Below, piece by piece: positions 44,840-55,301 of a stretch of 64,000 bases of DNA. How positions within the stretch are numbered: position 1 is the stretch's first letter; each line of letters begins with the position of its first letter. The notes under the pieces are model-generated. The model was not told where the DNA came from. It worked only from the letters and a program-made list of their open reading frames with translations, and ran no database searches. The position numbers were made by a program, and so were the translations under genes. The stretch comes from an uncultured Actinomycetes bacterium (GTDB lineage: Bacteria; Actinomycetota; Thermoleophilia; Gaiellales; Gaiellaceae): assembly GCA_963801855.1 (NCBI GenBank), contig CAWDGK010000003.1, positions 45,066-109,065 on the forward strand, in the 5' to 3' direction.

Positions 44840-45379
44840 TCAGCGCGCAGCCGCTCGGAGCTGGCCGAAGACGTCGGCCATCTCGAGCGCACCGCGCACG
44901 ACGTCTGCCGCACGGTCGATCCGGGCCTCGGCCTGCTCGATCGTCTCGGTCGTCAGGACGCCGAACGCAACCGGCACGCCCGTCTCGATCGCGGCCAGCT
45001 GCAGGCCGCTCGCCGCCTCCCCCGCAACGAAGTCGAAGTGCGGGGTCTCGCCGCGCACGACGCATCCGAGCGCCACGATGCATGCGTAGCGGCGGGTCTT
45101 CGCGAGGGCGATCGCCGCCAGCGGGAGCTCGAAGGCACCGGGAACCGGGACGATCGTCACAGCTTCGCGCGGGACGTTCGCCGCCTCCAGCTCCTCGAGC
45201 GCGCGCTCGAGGAGACGGCTCGTGATGTCGCCGTTGAAGCGCGCCACGACGATCCCGACAGACCGCTCGCTTCCCTCCGAGGAGCCGGTCAGCACCTGGT
45301 AGCCGGCAGGGATCTCGAGGCGACCCGGTGCGTGATCCGGCGGCCCCTCCCCTTCGGGCTCGACCTCCCGTTCCGGCAT
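44840..45379 (-). CDS. ribH: 6,7-dimethyl-8-ribityllumazine synthase
   Basis: It has VGIVVARFNGDITSRLL, VPGAFELP, ALGCVVRGETPHFDFV and FGVLT. I took the start at ATG 45379. A longer PE-rich N-terminus is possible (see findings). Confidence 0.88.
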   Translation of the reverse strand: MPEREVEPEGEGPPDHAPGRLEIPAGYQVLTGSSEGSERSVGIVVARFNGDITSRLLERALEELEAANVPREAVTIVPVPGAFELPLAAIALAKTRRYACIVALGCVVRGETPHFDFVAGEAASGLQLAAIETGVPVAFGVLTTETIEQAEARIDRAADVVRGALEMADVFGQLRAAAR

Positions 45380-45380
45380 T

Positions 45381-45473
45381 GGCTCGGGCTCCTGTTCCGG
45401 CACAGGCGCGGGCCGCTGTCTCGGGCTGCGGGCTCGGGCTCGCGCTGGGGCTCGGGCTCGGGCTCGGGCTGGC
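45381..45473. repeat. Imperfect hexanucleotide (GGGCTC)n microsatellite, encoding Pro-Glu repeats on the minus strand
   Basis: The tract at 45422..45472 reads cgggctgcgggctcgggctcgcgctggggctcgggctcgggctcgggctgg, and there is another ggctcgggctcc at 45381..45392. Confidence 0.8.
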
Positions 45474-45518
45474 GATCCGGCACGTAGACGTTCTCGGCGC
45501 GGTCGTCGAGCCGATCGG

Positions 45519-46754
45519 TCACGAGTCGAACCGCAGATCTTGGTGGTGGAGCCGGTGCCCGAGCTTGTCCCGCTTCGTCTCGAGATAGCGACGGTTCTCA
45601 TCGTTCGGGGGCGTCTCGATCGGAACCTGCTCGACGACCGTGAGCCCGAAGCCCTCGAGACCGGTGATCTTCTTCGGGTTGTTCGTGAGGATCCTGATCG
45701 TCGTCAGCCCGAGGTCGGCAAGGATCTGGTTTCCGATCCCCCAGTCCCGGGCGTCGGCCGGGAATCCGAGCTCGAGGTTCGCCTCGACCGTGTCGAGCCC
45801 GCCCTCCTGCAGCTCGTACGCCTTCAGTTTGCTCAGGAGCCCGATGCCGCGCCCCTCCTGGGCCATGTAGAGCAGGACACCCCGCTCCTCTGCGCCGATG
45901 CGCTCGAGCGCCTCGGTGAGCTGCTCGCCGCAGTCGCAGCGAAGCGAGTGGAAGACATCGCCTGTCAGGCACTCGGAGTGAACTCGCACGAGTACGCCGT
46001 CCGCGCCGTCGACCTCTCCTTTCACGAGAGCGACGTGGTGCTTGCCGGTCAGCGTCTCGCGGAACGCGATCGCCTGAAAATCGCCGTGGGCGGTAGGGAG
46101 CCGCACCGAGACGGTCCGCTCGACGAGCTTCTCTGTCCGCCGGCGGTACTCGATCAGGTCGGCGACGGTGACCATCTTGACCTCGTGGCGCCGGCAAAAC
46201 TCCCGGAGGTCCGGAACCCGCGCCATCGTGCCGTCGTCGTTCATCACCTCGCAGACGACCCCGGCGGGGATCAGACCGGCGAGGCGGGCCAGGTCGACCG
46301 CAGCCTCCGTCTGCCCCGTCCGCTCGAGGACTCCGCCCGCGCGAGCGCGCAACGGAAAGATGTGGCCGGGCTGCACCAGGTCGTGCGGGCCCTTGTTGGG
46401 GTCGATCGCAGTCTGGATCGTGCGCGAGCGGTCAGCGGCGGAGATACCGGTCGTCACGCCTTCCCGAGCCTCCACCGAGACCGTGAAGGCGGTCTGGAGC
46501 GGCGCCTCGTTGTTCTCGGCCATCGGTCGAAGCGCGAGCTCGTCGACCCGGTCCGGAGTCAGGCAGAGGCAGATCAGGCCGCGGGCGTGCGTCGCCATGA
46601 AGTTGATCGCCTCCGGCGTCGCGAACTGTGCGGCGATCGTGAGGTCGCCTTCGTTCTCGCGGTCTGCCGCGTCGACGACGACCACGAACTTGCCCTCGCG
46701 AATGTCGTCGATCGCCTCTTCGATGGTTGCGAAAACGGTGTCGGCCGTGGTCAT
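45519..46754 (-). CDS. ribBA: Bifunctional 3,4-dihydroxy-2-butanone-4-phosphate synthase / GTP cyclohydrolase II
   Basis: From [38 protein letters not shown] (the DHBPS half) to [24 protein letters not shown] (the GCHII half). The longer ORF N-terminus is shadow-like. Confidence 0.92.
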
Positions 46755-46848
46755 GGTCACCGACTGATCGTAACCAGCCGCGCAGGTTCGGTCGCGCTCG
46801 GGTAGCCTCGACCCCGGTTCTCGCTCTACGCCGTCCCACCTCTGATTG

Positions 46849-49800
46849 ATGTCTCCCCGTCGCCCGGGTACGTCTCGCCGAGGCATCGCCTTCGGCGCAC
46901 TTGCGCTGCTCGTCGCGCTCTGCACCGGACTCGCAGGCGGCTCGCTGCAGGCGGGCGCCGCAACGCCGGGGCTCGTCGGCGCCTACGCGCTCAGCGAGGG
47001 AACCGGCCTCCAGACGGCCGACTCATCTGGAAGCGCCAACGGAGGCACGCTCTCGGGTGCGACCTGGGCTGCGGCGGGAAAGTACGGAGGCGGCCTCGCG
47101 TTCGACGGCACGAACGACTGGGTCACGGTCCCCGACGCCGCCTCACTCGACCTCACGACCGGCCTGACCCTCGAAGCCTGGGTGCGGCCCACGACGAACT
47201 CGAGCTGGCGCACGGTCATGCTCAAGGAGCACGGCTCGACCCTCGCCTACGGGCTGTACAGCGCTGCCACGAGCAGCCGTCCCATGGGCGTCGTCCTCAC
47301 CGGCGGTAGCCAGCAGAAGCTCTCGGGGCCGACGGCGTTGACCCTGAACACCTGGACGCATCTCGCTCTCACGTACGACGGCGCCCAGATGCGCCTCTAC
47401 GTCAACGGAACGCAGCGGGCGAGCAAGGCGGTGACCGGCGCCGCCCCGAACTCGACCGGGGCCCTCCGGATCGGCGGCAACAACGTCTGGAAGTCGGAGT
47501 GGTTCAGCGGCAGCCTCGACGAGCTGCGCGTCTACAACCGGGCGCTCTCGGCGGCCGAGGTCCAGGCCGACATGAACTCCCCTGTGGGGCTGAGCGATAC
47601 CACGGCGCCGACCGCGCCGGGCAACCTGCGCCAGACGGCCTCCGCGCAGACGACGGCCACGATCTCCTGGGACTCGTCGACCGACAACATCGGCGTGCAG
47701 GGCTACGAGATCTTCCGCGGCACGACCTCGCAGGGTACGACGACGACGAACAACTGGTCGCTCACCGGCCTGCCGTGCAACTCCACGACGGCGGTGGGAG
47801 TCGAGGCGTTCGACGCGGCCGGTAACCGATCCTCACGATCAACCCTCACCGTTGCCACGACCTCGTGCGACACCGCGCCGCCGTCGGTCTCGATCACCAG
47901 CCCCTCAGGCGGAGCGACGGTGTCAGGCACCGTCCAGGTCTCGGCGTCGGCGGCCGACGACTCCGGAGTCGCCGGGGTCCAGTTCTTCGTCGACGGGGCT
48001 GCGGTCGGGCCGGAGGATCCGACGGCCCCGTACAGCTCCGACTGGAACACGGCGTCGGCCGGAAACGGCCCTCGCTCGCTGACTGCCGTCGCGCGAGACA
48101 CCTCCGGAAATCTCACGACGTCGTCCGCCGTCGGCGTTGACGTCGACAACGACACGGTCGCGCCCACCGTCGCCCTCACCGCACCGGCCGACGGAGCGAC
48201 GGTCACCGGCGTCGTCCAGCTCGCCGCGGACGCGAGCGACGACCGCGCCCTTGCCGGTGTCCGCTTTCGTCTCGACGGCATCAACCTCGGAGCCGAGGAC
48301 ACGACGGCGCCGTACTCGCTCTCCTGGGACACCGCCGGAGCAACCTCCGGGTCGCACTCGATCACCGCTTTCGCTCGCGACGCCGCCGGAAACACGAAGA
48401 CGTCGGCGGCCCGGACGGTCTTCGTCCAGAACGGGCTCAACACGGCGGACGCCTGGAAGAAAGTGACCGTAGGCCCCGGTTACGTGGACGCCTCGACGCG
48501 CACGCCGGTTCGCACCGCGGGAGGCTGGGTCTATCTCTTTGCCGCCGACGACACTGCTCGAGGCAACGGCGTCGGGCCGACGGTGATCCGCGCCTGGAAG
48601 GCAAACCGGCCCGGAATCCCGACCGCCTTCAGCGAGATGGACGGGGCGAACCGCCCGTCAGCCGCGACCGGGACCCTCCAGGTCCTCGGAAGCCCGGACA
48701 CCCGGCTCGATCGCAGCGGCATCGCCCACCTCGTCTACATGAACGAGTCGACCGACACGCTGAACTACAGGACGTTCTCGACGGTGACGAACACCTGGGG
48801 GCCGAACGAGGTGGTCGAGTCGGCGATCGGAATGGATTTCGACGGCAACACGACCTACAGGCGCGAGACGACGAACTCGATCGTCCTCGACGCGAACGAC
48901 GTCCCGCACATCGTCTACAAGTCCGGCTCGTCGCTCGTCCACCGGCATCGCACCGGCGGAACCTGGAGCGCCAAGGTGATCGTCGACACGCCTCCGGTGG
49001 GAACGCCGCGGCACTCGTCGCTCGCAGCCGATGCGCTCGGAAACCTCCACGTGACCTGGCTCCGCAGCGACTGGCTCGTGGCCTCGAATCCGCACCCGCA
49101 GATCATGTACCGGCGCCGCGGTGTCGACGGCGTCTGGGCGCCTGCCGAAGTGGCGGCCGAGACCGACGTCCAGACGAACGAGAACTCCGATCAGGGCCCG
49201 AGCATCGTCATCACGCAGAACGGGACGCCCCATGTCCTCTACGTCAGCGACCTCGGCGACAGCTTCGTCCAGACCGCCAATCGCACGAACGGCGTCTGGG
49301 TCTCGAACCACCCGCCTGTCGGAGTGTTCACCCACGCGCCTCAGATCTACGGGCAGTACAACGACATCTACGTCTTCCTCGGGCATGACCGGGCAATTCA
49401 CTTCGGCTACCTCTACAAGCTCAACGGCCAGCCCTGGGTGCCGTACGAGCGGCTCGACAGCACCGGCGACAACGACGGCTCGGGCTCGCCGCGCTGGGAT
49501 CCCATGCGAGAGCCGAATCCGGAGGTGATCGACACCACCTTCTACGAGGAGAACCTGGCCAACGACTCCCGGCGGCTGACGGAGCTCTACTACATGGCGG
49601 TTCTCCCGAGCGGCGGCCCCACAGACTCCGACCCTCCGACGACTCCCACCGATCTGACGCAGACGGATGCGACCGAGAACTCTCTGTCGATCTCCTGGAC
49701 TCCGTCGTCAGACGCAGTCGGCGTTGCGGGCTACGGGCTCTATCGCAACGGGTCGAGCGTGGGCTCGTCGTCGGTTCCGTCGGCGACGATCGGCGGTCTG

Positions 49801-50826
49801 GCGTGCGGTACGACCCAGAGCGTCGGAGTCGACGCCGTCGACGGCGCGGGGAATCGCTCGCCGATCACGACCATCCAGGCGCAGACGAGCCCGTGCGACA
49901 CGATTTCGCCCTCGGTGAGCATCACGAGCCCCGCTGCCGGCGCCTCGGTCTCGGGAACGACGCAGGTCTCGGCCGACGCGTCGGACAACACGGGTCTCGT
50001 CGGCGTCCAGTTCCGCCTCGACGGCGCGAACCTCGGGGTCGAGGACACGACGGCGCCGTATCGAGTCGACTGGAACACGGTCGGATGGGCGAACGGCAGC
50101 CACACGCTCTCGGCGGTCGCGCGCGACGTGTCGTCGAACTCGACTCAGTCGGCCAACGTCACGGTCACAGTCGCGAACACCGGGCCTGCGATCCCCCCCG
50201 GGCTGGCCGCGGCCTATGCCTTCGCCGAAGGAACCGGGAGCCAGACCGCGGACGCGTCCGGCAACGGAAATCCCGGCACGCTCGCCGGAGCGGCGTGGAC
50301 GGCCGCGGGCAAATACGGGAGCGCACTCACCTTCGACGGCACGAACGACTGGGTCACGGTCGCCGACAAGCCCTCGCTGGACGCGTCCGGTGCCCTGACG
50401 CTCGAGGCCTGGGTGCGCCCGAACGGCGGACCGACCTGGCGCACGATCCTGCTCAAGGAGAACGGGAGCACACTCGCCTACGCGCTCTACTCGGCGGCCT
50501 CCGGCGGAACGCCGATGGGGATCGTCCTCGTCGGCGGAACGCAGCAGAAACTGTCCGGGCCGTCGGCGCTTCCCGCCGGCGCCTGGTCGCACCTGGCGCT
50601 CACCTATGACGGCTCGCAGATGCGCCTGTACGTGAACGGCGTCCAACGGGCGAGCAAGGCCGTGACCGGCTCGATGCCCAATTCCAGCGGCGCGCTGCGG
50701 ATCGGCGGCAACAACGTCTGGAGGAGCGAGTGGTTCAGGGGCGAGCTCGACGAGCTGCGCGTGTACAACCGCGCGCTGGGCGCCGGCGAGATCCAGGCGG
50801 ATATGGGCACTCCCCTAGCGGGGTAG
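46849..50826 (+). CDS. Large secreted multidomain protein: LamG - FN3 - Ig-like x2 - central repeat (propeller-like) domain - FN3 - Ig-like - LamG
   Basis: ~1325 aa with the signal peptide IAFGALALLVALCTGLAGG. The LamG-type blocks carry LDELRVYNRAL. The FN3 blocks read ISWDSSTDNIGVQGYEIF and ISWTPSSDAVGVAGYGLY. The Ig-like blocks carry VQFxxDG....EDTTAPY. The central part has a recurring G..H(L/I/V)(V/T)(Y/W) motif. Confidence 0.85.
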   Translation: MSPRRPGTSRRGIAFGALALLVALCTGLAGGSLQAGAATPGLVGAYALSEGTGLQTADSSGSANGGTLSGATWAAAGKYGGGLAFDGTNDWVTVPDAASLDLTTGLTLEAWVRPTTNSSWRTVMLKEHGSTLAYGLYSAATSSRPMGVVLTGGSQQKLSGPTALTLNTWTHLALTYDGAQMRLYVNGTQRASKAVTGAAPNSTGALRIGGNNVWKSEWFSGSLDELRVYNRALSAAEVQADMNSPVGLSDTTAPTAPGNLRQTASAQTTATISWDSSTDNIGVQGYEIFRGTTSQGTTTTNNWSLTGLPCNSTTAVGVEAFDAAGNRSSRSTLTVATTSCDTAPPSVSITSPSGGATVSGTVQVSASAADDSGVAGVQFFVDGAAVGPEDPTAPYSSDWNTASAGNGPRSLTAVARDTSGNLTTSSAVGVDVDNDTVAPTVALTAPADGATVTGVVQLAADASDDRALAGVRFRLDGINLGAEDTTAPYSLSWDTAGATSGSHSITAFARDAAGNTKTSAARTVFVQNGLNTADAWKKVTVGPGYVDASTRTPVRTAGGWVYLFAADDTARGNGVGPTVIRAWKANRPGIPTAFSEMDGANRPSAATGTLQVLGSPDTRLDRSGIAHLVYMNESTDTLNYRTFSTVTNTWGPNEVVESAIGMDFDGNTTYRRETTNSIVLDANDVPHIVYKSGSSLVHRHRTGGTWSAKVIVDTPPVGTPRHSSLAADALGNLHVTWLRSDWLVASNPHPQIMYRRRGVDGVWAPAEVAAETDVQTNENSDQGPSIVITQNGTPHVLYVSDLGDSFVQTANRTNGVWVSNHPPVGVFTHAPQIYGQYNDIYVFLGHDRAIHFGYLYKLNGQPWVPYERLDSTGDNDGSGSPRWDPMREPNPEVIDTTFYEENLANDSRRLTELYYMAVLPSGGPTDSDPPTTPTDLTQTDATENSLSISWTPSSDAVGVAGYGLYRNGSSVGSSSVPSATIGGLACGTTQSVGVDAVDGAGNRSPITTIQAQTSPCDTISPSVSITSPAAGASVSGTTQVSADASDNTGLVGVQFRLDGANLGVEDTTAPYRVDWNTVGWANGSHTLSAVARDVSSNSTQSANVTVTVANTGPAIPPGLAAAYAFAEGTGSQTADASGNGNPGTLAGAAWTAAGKYGSALTFDGTNDWVTVADKPSLDASGALTLEAWVRPNGGPTWRTILLKENGSTLAYALYSAASGGTPMGIVLVGGTQQKLSGPSALPAGAWSHLALTYDGSQMRLYVNGVQRASKAVTGSMPNSSGALRIGGNNVWRSEWFRGELDELRVYNRALGAGEIQADMGTPLAG
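46966..47586 (+). repeat. N-terminal LamG coding copy (direct repeat partner of 50197..50817)
   Basis: By my manual alignment 149 of 207 aa are identical to the C-terminal copy. Shared nucleotide strings include ttcgacggcacgaacgactgggtcacggtc. Confidence 0.8.
50197..50817 (+). repeat. C-terminal LamG coding copy (direct repeat partner of 46966..47586)
   Basis: Same evidence as its partner at 46966..47586. Confidence 0.8.
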
Positions 50827-51357
50827 CAGCCGCTCGACGTACTTGGCGAGGATGTCGACCTCGAGGTTGACCCGTTCACCCTCCCCGAGCGCTCCGAGCG
50901 TCGTCACGTCGAGAGTGTGCTCGACGAGGGCGACCGTGAAGGTCTCCTCGTCCAGTGCGGCGATCGTGAGTGAAACCCCGTCGACCGCGATCGATCCCTT
51001 CTCGACGCAGTAGCGCAGGATCTCGGGCGGCGCCTCGATCGTCATCCGCTCGCCCTCCAACGACCGGATCCGTCCAACGCCGTCGACATGACCCTGGACG
51101 TAGTGGCCGCCGAGCGGCTCTCCTGCCGAGACCGCAGGCTCGAGGTTCACGGAAGCTCCGAAGCCCTTCGAGCGCGCCTGCGTCTCGTCGAGCACGTCGA
51201 AGGACAGGTGGCCGTTCTGGGCGTCGACGACCGTGAGGCAGACGCCGTTCACGTTGATCGAGTCCCCGACCGAGGGCGCGAGCGATGACTCGACGACGAG
51301 GCGGTCGTCTTCGAACGAGACGGTGCGGGCGAGCTCCTGGACGATCCCCGTGAACAC
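50815..51357 (-). CDS. ribE: Riboflavin synthase alpha chain
   Basis: It begins MFTGIVQELA and has the duplicated lumazine-binding repeats GDSINVNGVCLTV and GSIAVDGVSLTI. Confidence 0.92.
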   Translation of the reverse strand: MFTGIVQELARTVSFEDDRLVVESSLAPSVGDSINVNGVCLTVVDAQNGHLSFDVLDETQARSKGFGASVNLEPAVSAGEPLGGHYVQGHVDGVGRIRSLEGERMTIEAPPEILRYCVEKGSIAVDGVSLTIAALDEETFTVALVEHTLDVTTLGALGEGERVNLEVDILAKYVERLLPR

Positions 51358-51367
51358 GGGGAGAACG

Positions 51368-51583
51368 TTACTGACCGAGCGCGATTGCCTCGATCGTCTC
51401 GCGGACGAGAGGCTGAAGCTTCGGGCGCGAGATGTCCGATCGGGCGAGCTCTCCCCGAAGCTCGTCGATCAGCTCCTGCGACTCCGGCCCGACCTGCCCG
51501 GGTTCGTCGAGCGCGTCTCGGACATGGCGCAGGTCGACGTGGCCGGCGAGCCAGTGGGAAAGCGTCTGGACGAGGTCAGGGCT
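51368..51583 (-). CDS. Small hypothetical protein between ribD and ribE
   Basis: The ATG at 51583 overlaps the ribD stop (ATGAGCCCTGA). The 71 aa product (MSPDLVQTLSHWLAGHVDLRHVRDALDEP...) has a non-shadow composition. There is an 11 nt gap to ribE. Confidence 0.5.
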   Translation of the reverse strand, partial: SPDLVQTLSHWLAGHVDLRHVRDALDEPGQVGPESQELIDELRGELARSDISRPKLQPLVRETIEAIALGQ

Positions 51584-52520
51584 CATTGAAATAGGCACTG
51601 AGGAGAATGTCCTCTCCGATCGGGAGGGCCTTCAAACGGTACAGCAGGCCCTCCGGGACCTGTCCAGCGAGCAGCGGCGGGCCAACGCCGGAGAGCCGGG
51701 GAGCGACGAAGAGGAGGAGCTTGTCGACGAGACCTTCGCGGAAGAACGTCGATGCGAGCCGCGGTCCGCCCTCGAGCAGGATCGACTGGACGCCCTCCTC
51801 GGCCAGGGCGGCGAGCTCCTCCACGAGGGGGCCGGAGCGCAGCTCGAGCTTCGACCCCTCCGGAAGCGGAGGCCTGCCGAACACGAGCCTCCGCGGCTGC
51901 CGAAGCACCTCCACGCCACGTGCGTCGAGCCGTGGATCGTCGGCCAGCACCGTGCCCATCCCGACGGCGACGGCGTCGGAGGCGGCGCGAAGCTCGTGAA
52001 CGATTTCTCTGCTCGGCTCTCCGGAGATCCAGCGCTCTCCCGGCAACGTCACGCGGCCGTCGAGCGTGACGGCCGCCTTGTACGTGACGAAGGGCCTTCG
52101 CTTCGAGACCCACGTCCTCCAGGCCTCGTTCTGCGCCCTCGCCTCGAAGAGATCAGCGTCCTCCACGTCCACGCCCGCGGCACGGAGCTCCTCGAGGCCG
52201 CCGCCCGCCTCGGGGTTCGGATCCAGGCAGCCGGCGACGACTCGAGCAACGCCGGCGCCGAGCACCGCCTGGGTGCACGGCGGAGTGCTTCCACGGTGCG
52301 CGCACGGCTCCAGAGAGACGTAGAGCGTCGCGCCCTTCGCCCGCTCTCCCGCCTCCCCCAGGGCTACGACCTCGGCGTGGGGCCCACCCCTCCGTTCGTG
52401 CCAGCCTTCGCCAACGACGTCACCGTCCTTCACGACGACGGCCCCGACGACCGGATTCGGATGCGCCGTGCCGCGTCCTCGCTCCGCAAGCTCGAGCGCT
52501 CGGACGAGAAATTCGCTCAC
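51576..52520 (-). CDS. ribD: Bifunctional riboflavin biosynthesis deaminase/reductase RibD
   Basis: It has a deaminase domain (HAEVVAL...LEPCAHRGSTPPC) followed by a reductase domain. The GTG at 52520 overlaps the rpe stop (GTGA). Confidence 0.9.
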   Translation of the reverse strand: MSEFLVRALELAERGRGTAHPNPVVGAVVVKDGDVVGEGWHERRGGPHAEVVALGEAGERAKGATLYVSLEPCAHRGSTPPCTQAVLGAGVARVVAGCLDPNPEAGGGLEELRAAGVDVEDADLFEARAQNEAWRTWVSKRRPFVTYKAAVTLDGRVTLPGERWISGEPSREIVHELRAASDAVAVGMGTVLADDPRLDARGVEVLRQPRRLVFGRPPLPEGSKLELRSGPLVEELAALAEEGVQSILLEGGPRLASTFFREGLVDKLLLFVAPRLSGVGPPLLAGQVPEGLLYRLKALPIGEDILLSAYFNEP

Positions 52521-53191
52521 GCGAGCTCTTGAACCAGCCGCTTGTACGCCCGGGTCAGGTCCTCGCGGCCGAAGATGCTCGTCCCGGCCACGAAGAGCGT
52601 GGCGCCCGCGCCGCGCACCAGCCGGATGTTGTCCGGCCCAACACCGCCGTCGACCTGGATGTGCTTCTCGGGAAGCAGGCCACGGAGCCGCTCGATCCGG
52701 CCGAGAGCCTCCGGCATGAATGCCTGGCCCGAGTAGCCGGGGTTGATGCTCATGCAGAGGACGAAGTCGAAGGGCTCCGCCACCTGCGCGACCTGCTCCG
52801 GCTCGGTCTCGGGATTGAACGCGAGCCCGACCTCCAATTCGTGCTCGCGCGCCTGGCGAGCGACGGCCGCCGGGTCTGCGACGGCCTCGATGTGAAACGT
52901 GACGCTGTCGCCACCGGCTTCAGCGATCGCGGCGAAGTGGCGAGCGGGCTCTTCCACCATCAGGTGGCAGTCGAGCCGGCCTCCGAGCTTGTGGACGATC
53001 GGCGAGATCGACTGGAGCACGATCGGCCCGATCGTGACCGGCGGGACGAAATGACCGTCGCCGACGTCGAAGTGGAAGATCCGCGCGCCCCCTCGCGAGA
53101 GCGTCTCGATCTGCTCTCCGAGCTTGGAGAAGTCCGCCGCATACAGCGACGGCTCGACCTCGACCGTCCGGATCCATTCCCGCCAGGGCAC
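52517..53191 (-). CDS. rpe: Ribulose-phosphate 3-epimerase
   Basis: Matching stretches are PSLYAADF, HFDVGDGHFVP, DCHLMV, MSINPGYSGQAF and VDGGV. Confidence 0.92.
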   Translation of the reverse strand: MPWREWIRTVEVEPSLYAADFSKLGEQIETLSRGGARIFHFDVGDGHFVPPVTIGPIVLQSISPIVHKLGGRLDCHLMVEEPARHFAAIAEAGGDSVTFHIEAVADPAAVARQAREHELEVGLAFNPETEPEQVAQVAEPFDFVLCMSINPGYSGQAFMPEALGRIERLRGLLPEKHIQVDGGVGPDNIRLVRGAGATLFVAGTSIFGREDLTRAYKRLVQELA

Positions 53192-53212
53192 GCCGCGATC
53201 TTATGGGCGCCC

Positions 53213-53237
53213 GTCTCGAGGGACTGTCCCTCGAGAC
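53213..53237. terminator. Perfect hairpin, 11 bp stem and 3 nt loop (gtctcgaggga ctg tccctcgagac)
   Basis: Read directly from the sequence. It lies in the 95 nt rsmB-rpe spacer. Confidence 0.45.
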
Positions 53238-53286
53238 TGCCACGCGAGGCCGTGTCCTTTGGAACAAATGCGTGCCAAAGGGCGCT

Positions 53287-54525
53287 TCAGGCTGGCCGAA
53301 GCAGGCGGGCGATGAAGAATCCGGAGGTCCGGTCTCGGTGGGGCAAGGTGAGCAGGATGCCCTTCCGATGTGGATGCTCGTACTGCGGCCATGTCTCGGC
53401 GAGAGACGGATCGAGAGCGAGCCCATTCGCCTGGTCCGAAACGATTGCGTCCACCACGTCCTCGTTCTCCTCCTTCGCGATCGTGCAGACGGAGTAGAGG
53501 ACGGTTCCACCCGGCTTCACGCGCTCGGCGGCGACCCGGAGCAGCTCGAGCTGGAGCCCCGGCAGGGGGCGGGCGCGCCACCGAAGATCCGGACGGGCCG
53601 CGAGCACGCCGAGGCCGGAGCACGGCGCGTCGACGAGCACCCGGTCGAATCCGGTCAGCTCGGGAGGCAACTCGCGGGCGTCCGCGATCACGACCGTGAC
53701 GTTCGTGGCTCCCAGGAGGCGCGCATTCACCTCGAGCTCCCGGGCCCGTGCGGGATGGAGCTCGACAGCCACGACCTCCGCCGCCTTCGCCGCCAGTTGC
53801 GTCGCCTTGCCGCCCGGAGCCGCGCAGAGGTCGAGCACTCGCTCTCCCGGCTGAACCCCGACCGCCTCGCCGGCAAGCTGCGACGCTCGACTCTGGGGCC
53901 AGACGAGACCCTGCTCGAGCTCCTCCGGGTCGATTCGATCGACGACGCGCGGCTCGCCGGTCGCGACCACCCTCACGGCCGTTTCCGGCGGCTCGTTCTG
54001 CGCCCTCATGAGCGCAAGCGCCTCCTCTTCCCCCCACTCGCTCCACCAGGTCTCCGCGACCCAGTCCGGGTAGGAGTGCTTGAGCGCGGCCTGGGGCGCG
54101 GTCGACTCGGGGAGCGCCTTCAGTAGCGGGCGGATCCCCTCTGCGAGCCGGCGAGCGACAGCGTTCGAGAATCCAGCGGCCCGCCATGCAGGCGTCCCTT
54201 TCACGAGCTCGACGACCTCGTTGACGGTCGCCCGGGGCGGAACGCCGCCCAGGTAGCCGAGCTCGTACGCGCCGAGCCGGATCGCCGCGCGCACGGGCGG
54301 GTCGATCGCGCTCGCCGGCCTCCCGCCCAGCTGCTCGATCGCATGGTCGAGGACCCGGGCCATCTGGATCGCGCCGTACGCGATCCGCTGTGCGAACGCG
54401 CGGTCGCGCGCGTCGAGGTCCTTGGCCTCGGACGCAAAGGCGCGGTCGGCGTAGGCGTCCTCCTCGAACACACGCATCAGGACGCTGTGCGCGACTCGTC
54501 TGGCGGGGCTAGCGCCGGATGCCAC
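53287..54525 (-). CDS. rsmB: 16S rRNA (cytosine-C5)-methyltransferase RsmB/Sun
   Basis: It has a NusB-like N-terminal part, the SAM motif LDLCAAPGGKA, and the catalytic motifs DAPCSGLGV and YSVCT. Confidence 0.88.
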   Translation of the reverse strand: MASGASPARRVAHSVLMRVFEEDAYADRAFASEAKDLDARDRAFAQRIAYGAIQMARVLDHAIEQLGGRPASAIDPPVRAAIRLGAYELGYLGGVPPRATVNEVVELVKGTPAWRAAGFSNAVARRLAEGIRPLLKALPESTAPQAALKHSYPDWVAETWWSEWGEEEALALMRAQNEPPETAVRVVATGEPRVVDRIDPEELEQGLVWPQSRASQLAGEAVGVQPGERVLDLCAAPGGKATQLAAKAAEVVAVELHPARARELEVNARLLGATNVTVVIADARELPPELTGFDRVLVDAPCSGLGVLAARPDLRWRARPLPGLQLELLRVAAERVKPGGTVLYSVCTIAKEENEDVVDAIVSDQANGLALDPSLAETWPQYEHPHRKGILLTLPHRDRTSGFFIARLLRPA

Positions 54526-55301
54526 GCTCGAACTCGGCCAGCGTCATGCGGCGACCGCCCTCCGGCTGGACTTCAAGGACTTCGAGGCGGCCGTCGGCGC
54601 CGACCCGCGTTCGCCAGACGATCACGGGACGATCGTGGAGCTGACCCCGCGCGCCGATGTGCGGGGAGAGAGCGCGGACCCGGTCGTGCAGCTCCTTTGC
54701 CGGCCGGGACCGGTCGAGGAGCCGATCCGCGGGCCCGATCTTCTCGGCGTACGTCGCCTCGCCTTCCTGCTCCTGGAACTCCTGCGACTCGAGCACACGC
54801 TCCACGAGACCCGGCGCAACCTGGGCGGCCCGGTCGTAGACGGCTCCTGCGTCGTCGTCCGGGCCGATCGAAAACGGCTCGACGGCGCCGACCGGTCCCG
54901 CGTCGAGCTCCTCCACCAGCCGGATCACTGTGACTCCTGTCTCGGTGTCCCCCGCCATGATCGCCCGCTCGACTGGCGCTGCCCCGCGCCAGCGCGGCAA
55001 CAGGGATGGATGGACGTTGAGCCAGAGCGCCTGCTCGAGGAGCTCGGACGGGATCAGCGCCCCGTAGTCGACCAGCAGCACGGCATCCGCGTCGAGCTCG
55101 AAAGCCCCCGAGCCGCTCGGGCTGCTGAACGGCGATGCCGAGCTCCGCGGCCGCGTCCTTCGCGGCCGGCGCGGCCAGTTCGCGACCTCGCCCCTTGGGG
55201 CGGTCCGGACGGGTCAGCACGTACTCGACGGGCCGGCGGGCCGCGACCTCGCGGAGGATGCTCGCGCCGAACGGCCCCGTGGCCGCGACGGCCAGGCGCA
55301 C
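54509..55301 (-). pseudogene. fmt: Methionyl-tRNA formyltransferase with one frame disruption near 55100
   Basis: The N-terminal part in ORF 54573..55301 (MRLAVAATGPFGASIL...LTRPDRPKGRGRE...IAVQQPERLGGF) joins ORF 54509..55081 (ELDADAVLLVDYGALIP...NVHPSLLPRWRGAAPV) if one nucleotide is removed at GGC TT[T] C GAG. The GTG start shares 1 nt with the def stop. Confidence 0.88.

Follow-up and report, generated by a model that had tools for sequence, protein, structure and literature searches.

Do the riboflavin genes of an uncultured soil actinobacterium of the Gaiellaceae form an operon that has been broken apart, and how are the genes beyond the break expressed? The question is raised by a window of 64,000 nucleotides (the whole stretch of DNA analyzed here, with a GC content of ~70%), which lies on contig C3 of a metagenome-assembled genome (MAG; handle G000) of 2.63 Mb in 6 contigs that is 86% complete and whose nearest named relative is a Gaiellaceae MAG. 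In this window a long plus-strand gene of unrelated function sits in the midst of the minus-strand rib genes. A preliminary description of the locus had taken this gene to interrupt a riboflavin operon and, as a consequence, to uncouple ribBA-ribH from ribD-ribE. Our analysis points, with good though not full confidence, to another order of events, namely an old insertion of a single gene between two rib units with leaderless transcripts that already existed, followed by patchy retention of the inserted gene.

Gene identities were assigned by a Pfam search of the window proteins, and the locus is laid out as follows.

44840..45379, minus strand: ribH, lumazine synthase (Pfam DMRL_synthase, E 2.4e-45)
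45519..46760 (GTG start) or 46754 (ATG start), minus strand: ribBA, DHBP synthase / GTP cyclohydrolase II (PF00926 DHBP_synthase and PF00925 GTP_cyclohydro2)
46846 (TTG start) or 46849 (ATG start)..50826, plus strand: inserted accessory gene, 1326 aa (open reading frame and Pfam)
50815..50826: convergent overlap of 12 nt between the 3' ends of the inserted gene and ribE
50815..51357, minus strand: ribE, riboflavin synthase, 180 aa (Pfam Lum_binding, twice; C-terminus ERLLPR-stop)
51368..51586, minus strand: orf72, 72 aa, between ribD and ribE, its start overlapping the ribD stop
51576..52520, minus strand: ribD, deaminase / reductase (PF00383 and PF01872, RibD_C)
52517..53191, minus strand: rpe, ribulose-phosphate 3-epimerase (PF00834), its stop overlapping the ribD start by 4 nt
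53287..54525, minus strand: rsmB (Pfam)

The four enzyme genes ribD, ribE, ribBA and ribH all carry their diagnostic domains and lie on one strand in canonical order, an order that is kept in ~35 related genomes. The inserted gene parts ribH-ribBA (44840..46760) from ribE-orf72-ribD-rpe (50815..53191), and Pfam and the coordinates bear out the tight fit on both sides that had been described before: its stop codon, TAG, reads on the other strand as a CTA codon of ribE, four codons ahead of the ribE stop, and its start lies 94 nt from ribBA if the latter begins at the ATG (46754), or 88 nt if it begins at the GTG (46760). The absence of mobile-element scars was likewise corroborated. Neither flanking direct or inverted repeats nor a target-site duplication was found at the insert, the only repeats being its own LamG, fn3 and Big_7 duplications; the insert is a single open reading frame without a transposase, integrase or recombinase domain in Pfam; and GC content shows no shift (0.67-0.71 in the inserted gene and the flanking rib genes, and ~0.65-0.74 across the 18-kb profile around them). 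Judged by recombinase, repeats and composition, the insert does not look like a mobile element or a genomic island. A 7-nt repeat (GCGGCTG) found at both of its ends in this genome is missing from the other genomes that carry the gene, and was hence taken as chance.

A chimeric join during assembly might produce such a picture, and the MAG, with its 6 contigs and 86% completeness, does contain at least one probable indel error (a frameshift in fmt, see below). However, the same arrangement was found in three further independent assemblies from different projects, namely the Gaiellaceae MAG DATBMH010000019 (G036) and the ENA metagenome contigs ERZ25039555 (L079) and ERZ1761214 (L080), the two contigs both reading ribH-ribBA, then the divergent inserted gene, then ribE-orf-ribD-rpe. 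In all three the inserted gene occupies the same place, shows 70-72% protein identity, and is surrounded by flanks that have diverged along with it. The split arrangement is therefore real, and its explanation as an assembly artefact is effectively refuted.

The split proved not to be the ancestral state of the genus, and it is not widespread there either. We searched for ribBA and ribE in 60 relatives, and for the inserted gene in 39 genomes of the genus. The gap between ribE and ribBA measures 27-51 bp in 24 of the 31 other species of the genus and, outside the family, 40-95 bp in four genomes of the same order. Six species of the genus have gaps of 99-767 bp with other fillers, and a gap of ~4.06 kb occurs only in G000 and G036. 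The central domain of the inserted protein is present in 2 of the 39 genus genomes, again G000 and G036. The rib cluster was thus contiguous ancestrally, and the split is a derived, rare insertion; the scarless state does not mean that the arrangement is the original one.

One further contig (JGI 3300041965, 13.5 kb) encodes protein P0004, which is orthologous to the inserted protein at 85% identity; next to it lie a 192-aa gene and then rpe. No ribD is called between the orthologue and rpe, and this contig, for which gene calls only were used, may represent a further rearranged version of the rib locus.

Comparison of the four carriers (G000, G036, L079 and L080) revealed that the junction arose once. 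The insert has an identical place and orientation in 4/4 carriers, and in each of them ribE is 180 aa long, ends in the tail ERL[LV]xR-stop and overlaps the insert convergently (12 nt in G036 by sequence and in L079 by the coordinates of the called genes, and 4 nt in L080). In the 8 non-carriers examined, ribE has 181-182 aa and the tail L-x-G-x(2-3)-stop. The ribE tail and convergent junction that all carriers have in common point to a single insertion event.

The carriers are nevertheless not monophyletic. In a tree built on a concatenation of the flanking proteins, three of the four carriers group most closely, and with strong support, with genomes that lack the insert (G000 with G008, L080 with G016, and L079 with G025/G011; G036 took no firm position inside the second carrier clade), and a tree in which the carriers were forced into one clade was rejected (approximately unbiased (AU) test, p = 1.7e-141). 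The N-terminus of the unlinked rpoB gave the same picture: G000 and the empty-site genome G008 are sisters (98.6% identity, 99/99 support), G036 falls in another clade, and grouping G000 with G036 was rejected (AU p = 6e-4). Synonymous divergence (dS) between carriers is 0.55-0.82 in the insert and 0.32-0.90 in the flanking genes, and the identities of the inserted proteins fall into two groups that match the clades of the flanks. Since the dS of the insert equals that of the flanks, the insertion is old; with a ratio of nonsynonymous to synonymous divergence (dN/dS) of 0.24-0.30 between carriers, the inserted gene is functional and under purifying selection, co-diverging with its flanks.

An alternative reading of this patchiness is lateral spread, in which the gene would have entered one lineage and then passed between species by recombination through ribE and ribBA, so that repeated gains rather than losses produced the pattern. 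The non-monophyly of the carriers on both the flank and the rpoB trees would fit such a scenario, as would the co-segregation of the ribE 3' allele with the insert. G000 and G008, moreover, share ~90% of their nucleotides in ribD and orf72, a figure that drops to 74-83% in ribE, and a tree of the right-hand block (ribE+ribBA+ribH) parts them; the recombination breakpoint that this suggests at the start of ribE is not significant, as a tree that keeps the two genomes together is not rejected by the AU test (p = 0.058). Against lateral spread stand the equal dS of insert and flanks, the identity groups of the insert that mirror the species clades, and the flank windows of the carriers, which are not clearly closer to each other than to those of non-carrier sisters. 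The high dS of the insert rules out a recent spread, and together with the mirrored clades it implies that any transfers would date back roughly to the species splits. On balance we regard lateral spread as unlikely. Under the old single insertion that we favor, homologous recombination in the conserved flanking rib genes would most likely account for the exchange or loss of carrier and empty alleles, and the insert now survives as a presence/absence polymorphism among species, with the nearest relatives keeping the intact ancestral junction.

How could a 4-kb gene land in a riboflavin cluster without silencing half of it? The spacers of the locus contain three candidate promoter elements.

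46767..46772, minus strand: -10-like box TACGAT, 6 nt upstream of the ribBA GTG (46760); proposed leaderless promoter of ribBA-ribH
53198..53203, minus strand: -10-like box TAAGAT, 6 nt upstream of the rpe GTG (53191); proposed leaderless promoter of rpe-ribD-orf72-ribE
46803..46808, plus strand: TAGCCT, putative -10 box of the inserted gene, leadered, ~38 nt to the start

The preliminary description had placed the ribBA-ribH promoter inside the short divergent spacer, and this placement is most probably correct, with TACGAT (46772..46767) as the candidate. An alignment of the 70-nt stretches ahead of ribBA, taken from all 34 loci of the genus with and without the insert, gave a near-invariant G[AT]TA[CG][CG]AT. 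The hexamer (TACGAT, TACCAT or TAGCAT) ends 6-9 nt ahead of the ribBA ATG/GTG in 34/34 loci, those with ribE 28 bp away and those with ribE at 4 kb alike, and in one subclade the final codons of ribE contain it. Because the box is present even where ribE is only 27-51 bp away, the uncoupling of the two units would predate the insertion and not, as had been supposed, result from it.

In 25 of 30 loci a similar box (TAAGAT, TAAGCT, TAGGAT or TAGTAT) precedes the aligned start of rpe by 5-7 nt, and in one more by 10 nt. The ribD-ribE pair had also been described as fused by overlaps to rpe and to the genes upstream of it; this is true of rpe, through the 4-nt overlap, but not of rsmB, from which rpe is separated by a 95-nt spacer holding a hairpin and the -10-like box. 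The hairpin, GAGGGACAGTCCCTCGAG, lies downstream of rsmB (window 53198-53260, minus strand) and is followed by the TAAGAT box ahead of the rpe GTG. This module of a terminator and a leaderless promoter is kept ahead of rpe in most members of the genus; in four species rpe overlaps or abuts rsmB, and a TAAGAT-type box is absent.

Leaderless transcription in Actinobacteria has been described as having a TANNNT -10 element with no -35 consensus and a preference for S-R-N ahead of the hexamer (Cortes et al. 2013, PMC3898074). The boxes found here resemble these promoters in having TANNNT close to an ATG or GTG, and the GGA ahead of TACGAT fits the S-R-N preference; the case for them is built on motif position, conservation and genome-wide enrichment. 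Among the candidate starts of 1331 long open reading frames (ORFs) with high GC at third codon positions (GC3), TANNNT occurs at offsets of 6-9 nt in 0.35-0.67% of cases, ~tenfold more often than the ~0.05% seen at other offsets, and it precedes 12.6% of the first in-frame starts of 1307 long ORFs. Both the ribBA and the rpe boxes have the leaderless configuration, with TANNNT 6-9 nt ahead of the start and no Shine-Dalgarno sequence. Leaderless mRNAs are reportedly abundant in Actinobacteria. The GTG at 46760, proposed here as the leaderless start of ribBA, is more likely to be used than the ATG at 46754. We propose that the two leaderless units, rpe-ribD-orf72-ribE and ribBA-ribH, are older than the insertion. 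The inserted gene, for its part, seems to bring its own promoter: a candidate box stands ahead of it in 4/4 carriers (TAGGTT in L079 and L080, TATGTT in G036 and TAGCCT in G000), in the common context G-TA-G/T-G/C-T/C-T-CG.

The course of events that we propose begins with a contiguous ancestral cluster of rsmB, rpe-ribD-(orf72)-ribE and ribBA-ribH, in which the rpe unit and the ribBA unit would be transcribed separately as leaderless messages, each beginning 6-9 nt past its TANNNT -10 box. In one ancestral lineage, a single gene equipped with a promoter would have entered the ~35-bp junction, pointing to ribE, and the last ~five ribE codons would have been swapped for three antisense codons of the inserted gene. 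As the insert would have entered immediately upstream of the ribBA promoter, expression of both rib units would have been preserved, and the fact that this promoter predates the insertion probably explains why the insertion was tolerated.

In other species the same junction holds five other, unrelated fillers.

G005: nearly perfect 199-bp palindrome
G035: 200 bp
G023: small membrane-protein ORF
G022: lipoprotein-like ORF
G006 and G021: terminator-like hairpins

Such varied fillers at one gap fit a junction between two pre-existing units. The palindrome of G005 (L044, G005:C178, ~2690-2885) has a predicted hairpin dG of -140 kcal/mol and terminal inverted repeats AGAGGCTCCAACA...TGTTGGAGCCTCT; it sits exactly at the TAG stop of ribE, with a TAG on both sides, and looks like an element of the miniature inverted-repeat transposable element (MITE) type.

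The protein brought in by the insertion comprises, by Pfam and structure modeling, a signal peptide, LamG, fn3, Big_7 repeats, a beta-propeller, fn3, Big_7 and LamG, in this order. Pfam matched LamG twice (PF13385, E 1e-37 each), Big_7 (PF17957) at least four times and fn3 (PF00041) twice, and the signal peptide was read from the hydrophobic N-terminus and an AGAA/TPGL-type cleavage region. The architecture is that of secreted multidomain proteins with LamG-like jelly-roll, Big_7 and fn3 modules. The two halves of the gene are internal duplicates, with 73-75% nucleotide identity, and enclose the central domain.

48376..49620, plus strand: central domain, residues 511-925 (415 aa), predicted seven-bladed beta-propeller

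The central domain had no Pfam match at E<=1 and no sequence match among PDB chains. It has at least 74 homologues at E <= 1e-5, metagenomic proteins in which it is framed by varied LamG, Big_7, fn3 and DUF4082 modules, with orthologues showing 78-90% identity in the domain. A structure model from the single sequence (pLDDT 33) was discarded in favor of an AlphaFold2 model based on a 72-sequence alignment, which reached a pLDDT of 91 and a pTM of 0.90. The best Foldseek matches of this model were GH145 (4IRT, 5MUM, 5MUL and 5MVH), the PL42 rhamnose-glucuronate lyase (7ESK) and the fucose/rhamnose lectins of Photorhabdus (E ~1e-12 to 1e-10, TM 0.59-0.65; probability 1.00 for the GH145 and PL42 entries). 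GH145, PL42, PL24, PL25 and the Photorhabdus PLL/PHL lectins have one common seven-bladed beta-propeller fold (PMC8377490). The inserted protein resembles GH145 (BT3686), PL42 (FoRham1), PL24, PL25 and these lectins in its predicted fold and in being a secreted protein with carbohydrate-binding-type modules, but sequence identity is 10-16%, and the mirror-like frame of LamG-fn3-Big_7 ... fn3-Big_7-LamG is foreign to those enzymes. The alignment of the family shows invariant R163, H320, H337, D338, D272, E87 and several Trp residues. In the GH145, PL42, PL24 and PL25 enzymes the catalytic residues are His/His/Arg/Tyr on the anterior face of the propeller or, for BT3686, His48 on the posterior one. 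Judged from the model, the inserted protein is most probably an extracellular glycan-binding or glycan-cleaving protein, and its central propeller is a candidate for a new glycan-active or lectin family.

Several large paralogues are clustered on contig C4 of the same genome (~2700-26000); their LamG, fn3 and Big_7 modules share 41-52% identity with the ends of the inserted protein. All of them lack the propeller, of which no second copy was found in G000.

Could the secreted protein have been recruited beside ribBA for a reason, with the divergent spacer co-regulating flavin supply and the use of extracellular glycans? The two candidate divergent promoters are only ~30 nt apart (46772 vs 46803), and the arrangement is retained under purifying selection in several lineages; both points speak for such a link. 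However, most species of the genus do without the inserted gene, the ribBA -10 box is the same with and without it, and its more distant homologues sit in unrelated genomic contexts. Pfam identified no flavin-binding or flavin-dependent domain in the inserted protein, and no common operator was seen. The inserted protein most probably has no role in riboflavin synthesis, and it has no link to riboflavin that we could see, and we consider a functional connection very improbable.

Control by flavin mononucleotide (FMN), which had been suggested as a test for ribBA, likewise finds no support in the sequence. The FMN riboswitch (RFN element) is common upstream of rib genes in Firmicutes and in many Actinobacteria, and is not obligatory. 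A search for RF00050 came up empty both for the window, at the gathering threshold as well as at E<=1, and for the 2.63 Mb assembly (86% complete); the same genome search found the riboswitch in 7 control genomes.

Several points weigh against an old insertion between two leaderless units. Both rib promoters, and their transcription starts, are predicted from motif conservation. A scan of the spacer for E. coli-type sigma-70 promoters returned no sites, a null result that is expected, and uninformative, in an actinobacterium of 70% GC. The insertion mechanism left no trace, in that no repeats, recombinase gene or displaced remnant of the ribE tail were found; a tblastn search with the original ribE tail gave no match at the ribBA-side junction, and the similarity to this tail that G036 shows by eye produced local alignments no better than those of shuffled sequences in 4/4 carriers. 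If the insertion is as old as its dS suggests, at least seven losses would have restored an ancestral-looking junction, which is unparsimonious without recombination, and recombinational exchange of alleles is weakly supported (the AU p of 0.058 given above).

Taking the same observations further, the ribE-ribBA junction may act as a 'landing pad' that needs no machinery of its own, its polymorphism for a secreted glycan-active protein having lasted through numerous speciations while being shuffled by homologous recombination and possibly kept by balancing or niche-dependent selection, and the propeller may found a family related to GH145/PL42. We put this forward tentatively, as a speculation that may well prove wrong.

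Among the neighboring genes, orf72 shows 64-92% identity in most genus loci and has a full-length match in 22 of 31, being missing mainly in the second subclade; it had no match in Pfam, and no counterpart was seen in the loci compared from the order's other families. It appears to be a genuine, lineage-specific component of the rpe-ribD-ribE unit. The start of ribH is ambiguous because an imperfect GGGCTC repeat tract between ribBA and ribH (45380-45522) leaves the frame open far upstream, to 45601 (an ORF of 253 aa); the first ATG is at 45379. The orthologues of ribH are 78-92% identical across the genus, and their length in the gene calls of relatives ranges from 150 to 197 aa. Beyond rsmB, the methionyl-tRNA formyltransferase gene fmt (window 54509-55301, minus strand) is split across two frames near 55101; set against an intact 260-aa orthologue on L079, one frame covers residues 1-67 and the other residues 67-260. 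This frame break is probably an assembly indel, or else fmt is a pseudogene. Similar breaks were seen in rib genes of the few-contig relatives G003, G023, G025 and G028.

The case combines features of known kinds (interrupted rib clusters, internal rib promoters and leaderless actinobacterial promoters), and belongs to ordinary genome evolution. The rib region of Mycobacterium tuberculosis, rpe-ribG ... ribC ... ribA2-ribH, is broken by the unrelated genes lprG and Rv1410c, and Rv1413 and Rv1414. That region is likewise an rpe-linked actinobacterial rib cluster with non-rib genes, including those of envelope or secreted proteins, between the rib genes; the genes and positions differ, however, and the arrangement there is fixed, whereas ours is a presence/absence polymorphism within one genus. 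A rib cluster is also known in which an internal promoter of ribA(BA)-ribH lies downstream of the riboflavin synthase gene, so that there, as here, the genes do not form a single obligatory unit. Unlike that cluster, the locus described here has as its proposed promoters -10 boxes of the leaderless type without a 5' untranslated region, has no FMN riboswitch, and had its junction opened by foreign DNA.

Nothing in these results overturns current understanding, but they illustrate that an operon that appears broken need not be broken. In Actinobacteria rich in leaderless transcripts, a short intergenic gap can conceal a full promoter, so that gene order alone overstates co-transcription and such gaps offer safe landing places for new genes. 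This bears on operon prediction and on the reading of metabolic clusters in uncultured high-GC lineages. The locus also provides a clean natural case of a long-lived presence/absence polymorphism of a single gene without the signature of a mobile element, in a Gaiellaceae lineage that, judging from its assembled sequence, evidently runs riboflavin synthesis without an FMN riboswitch.

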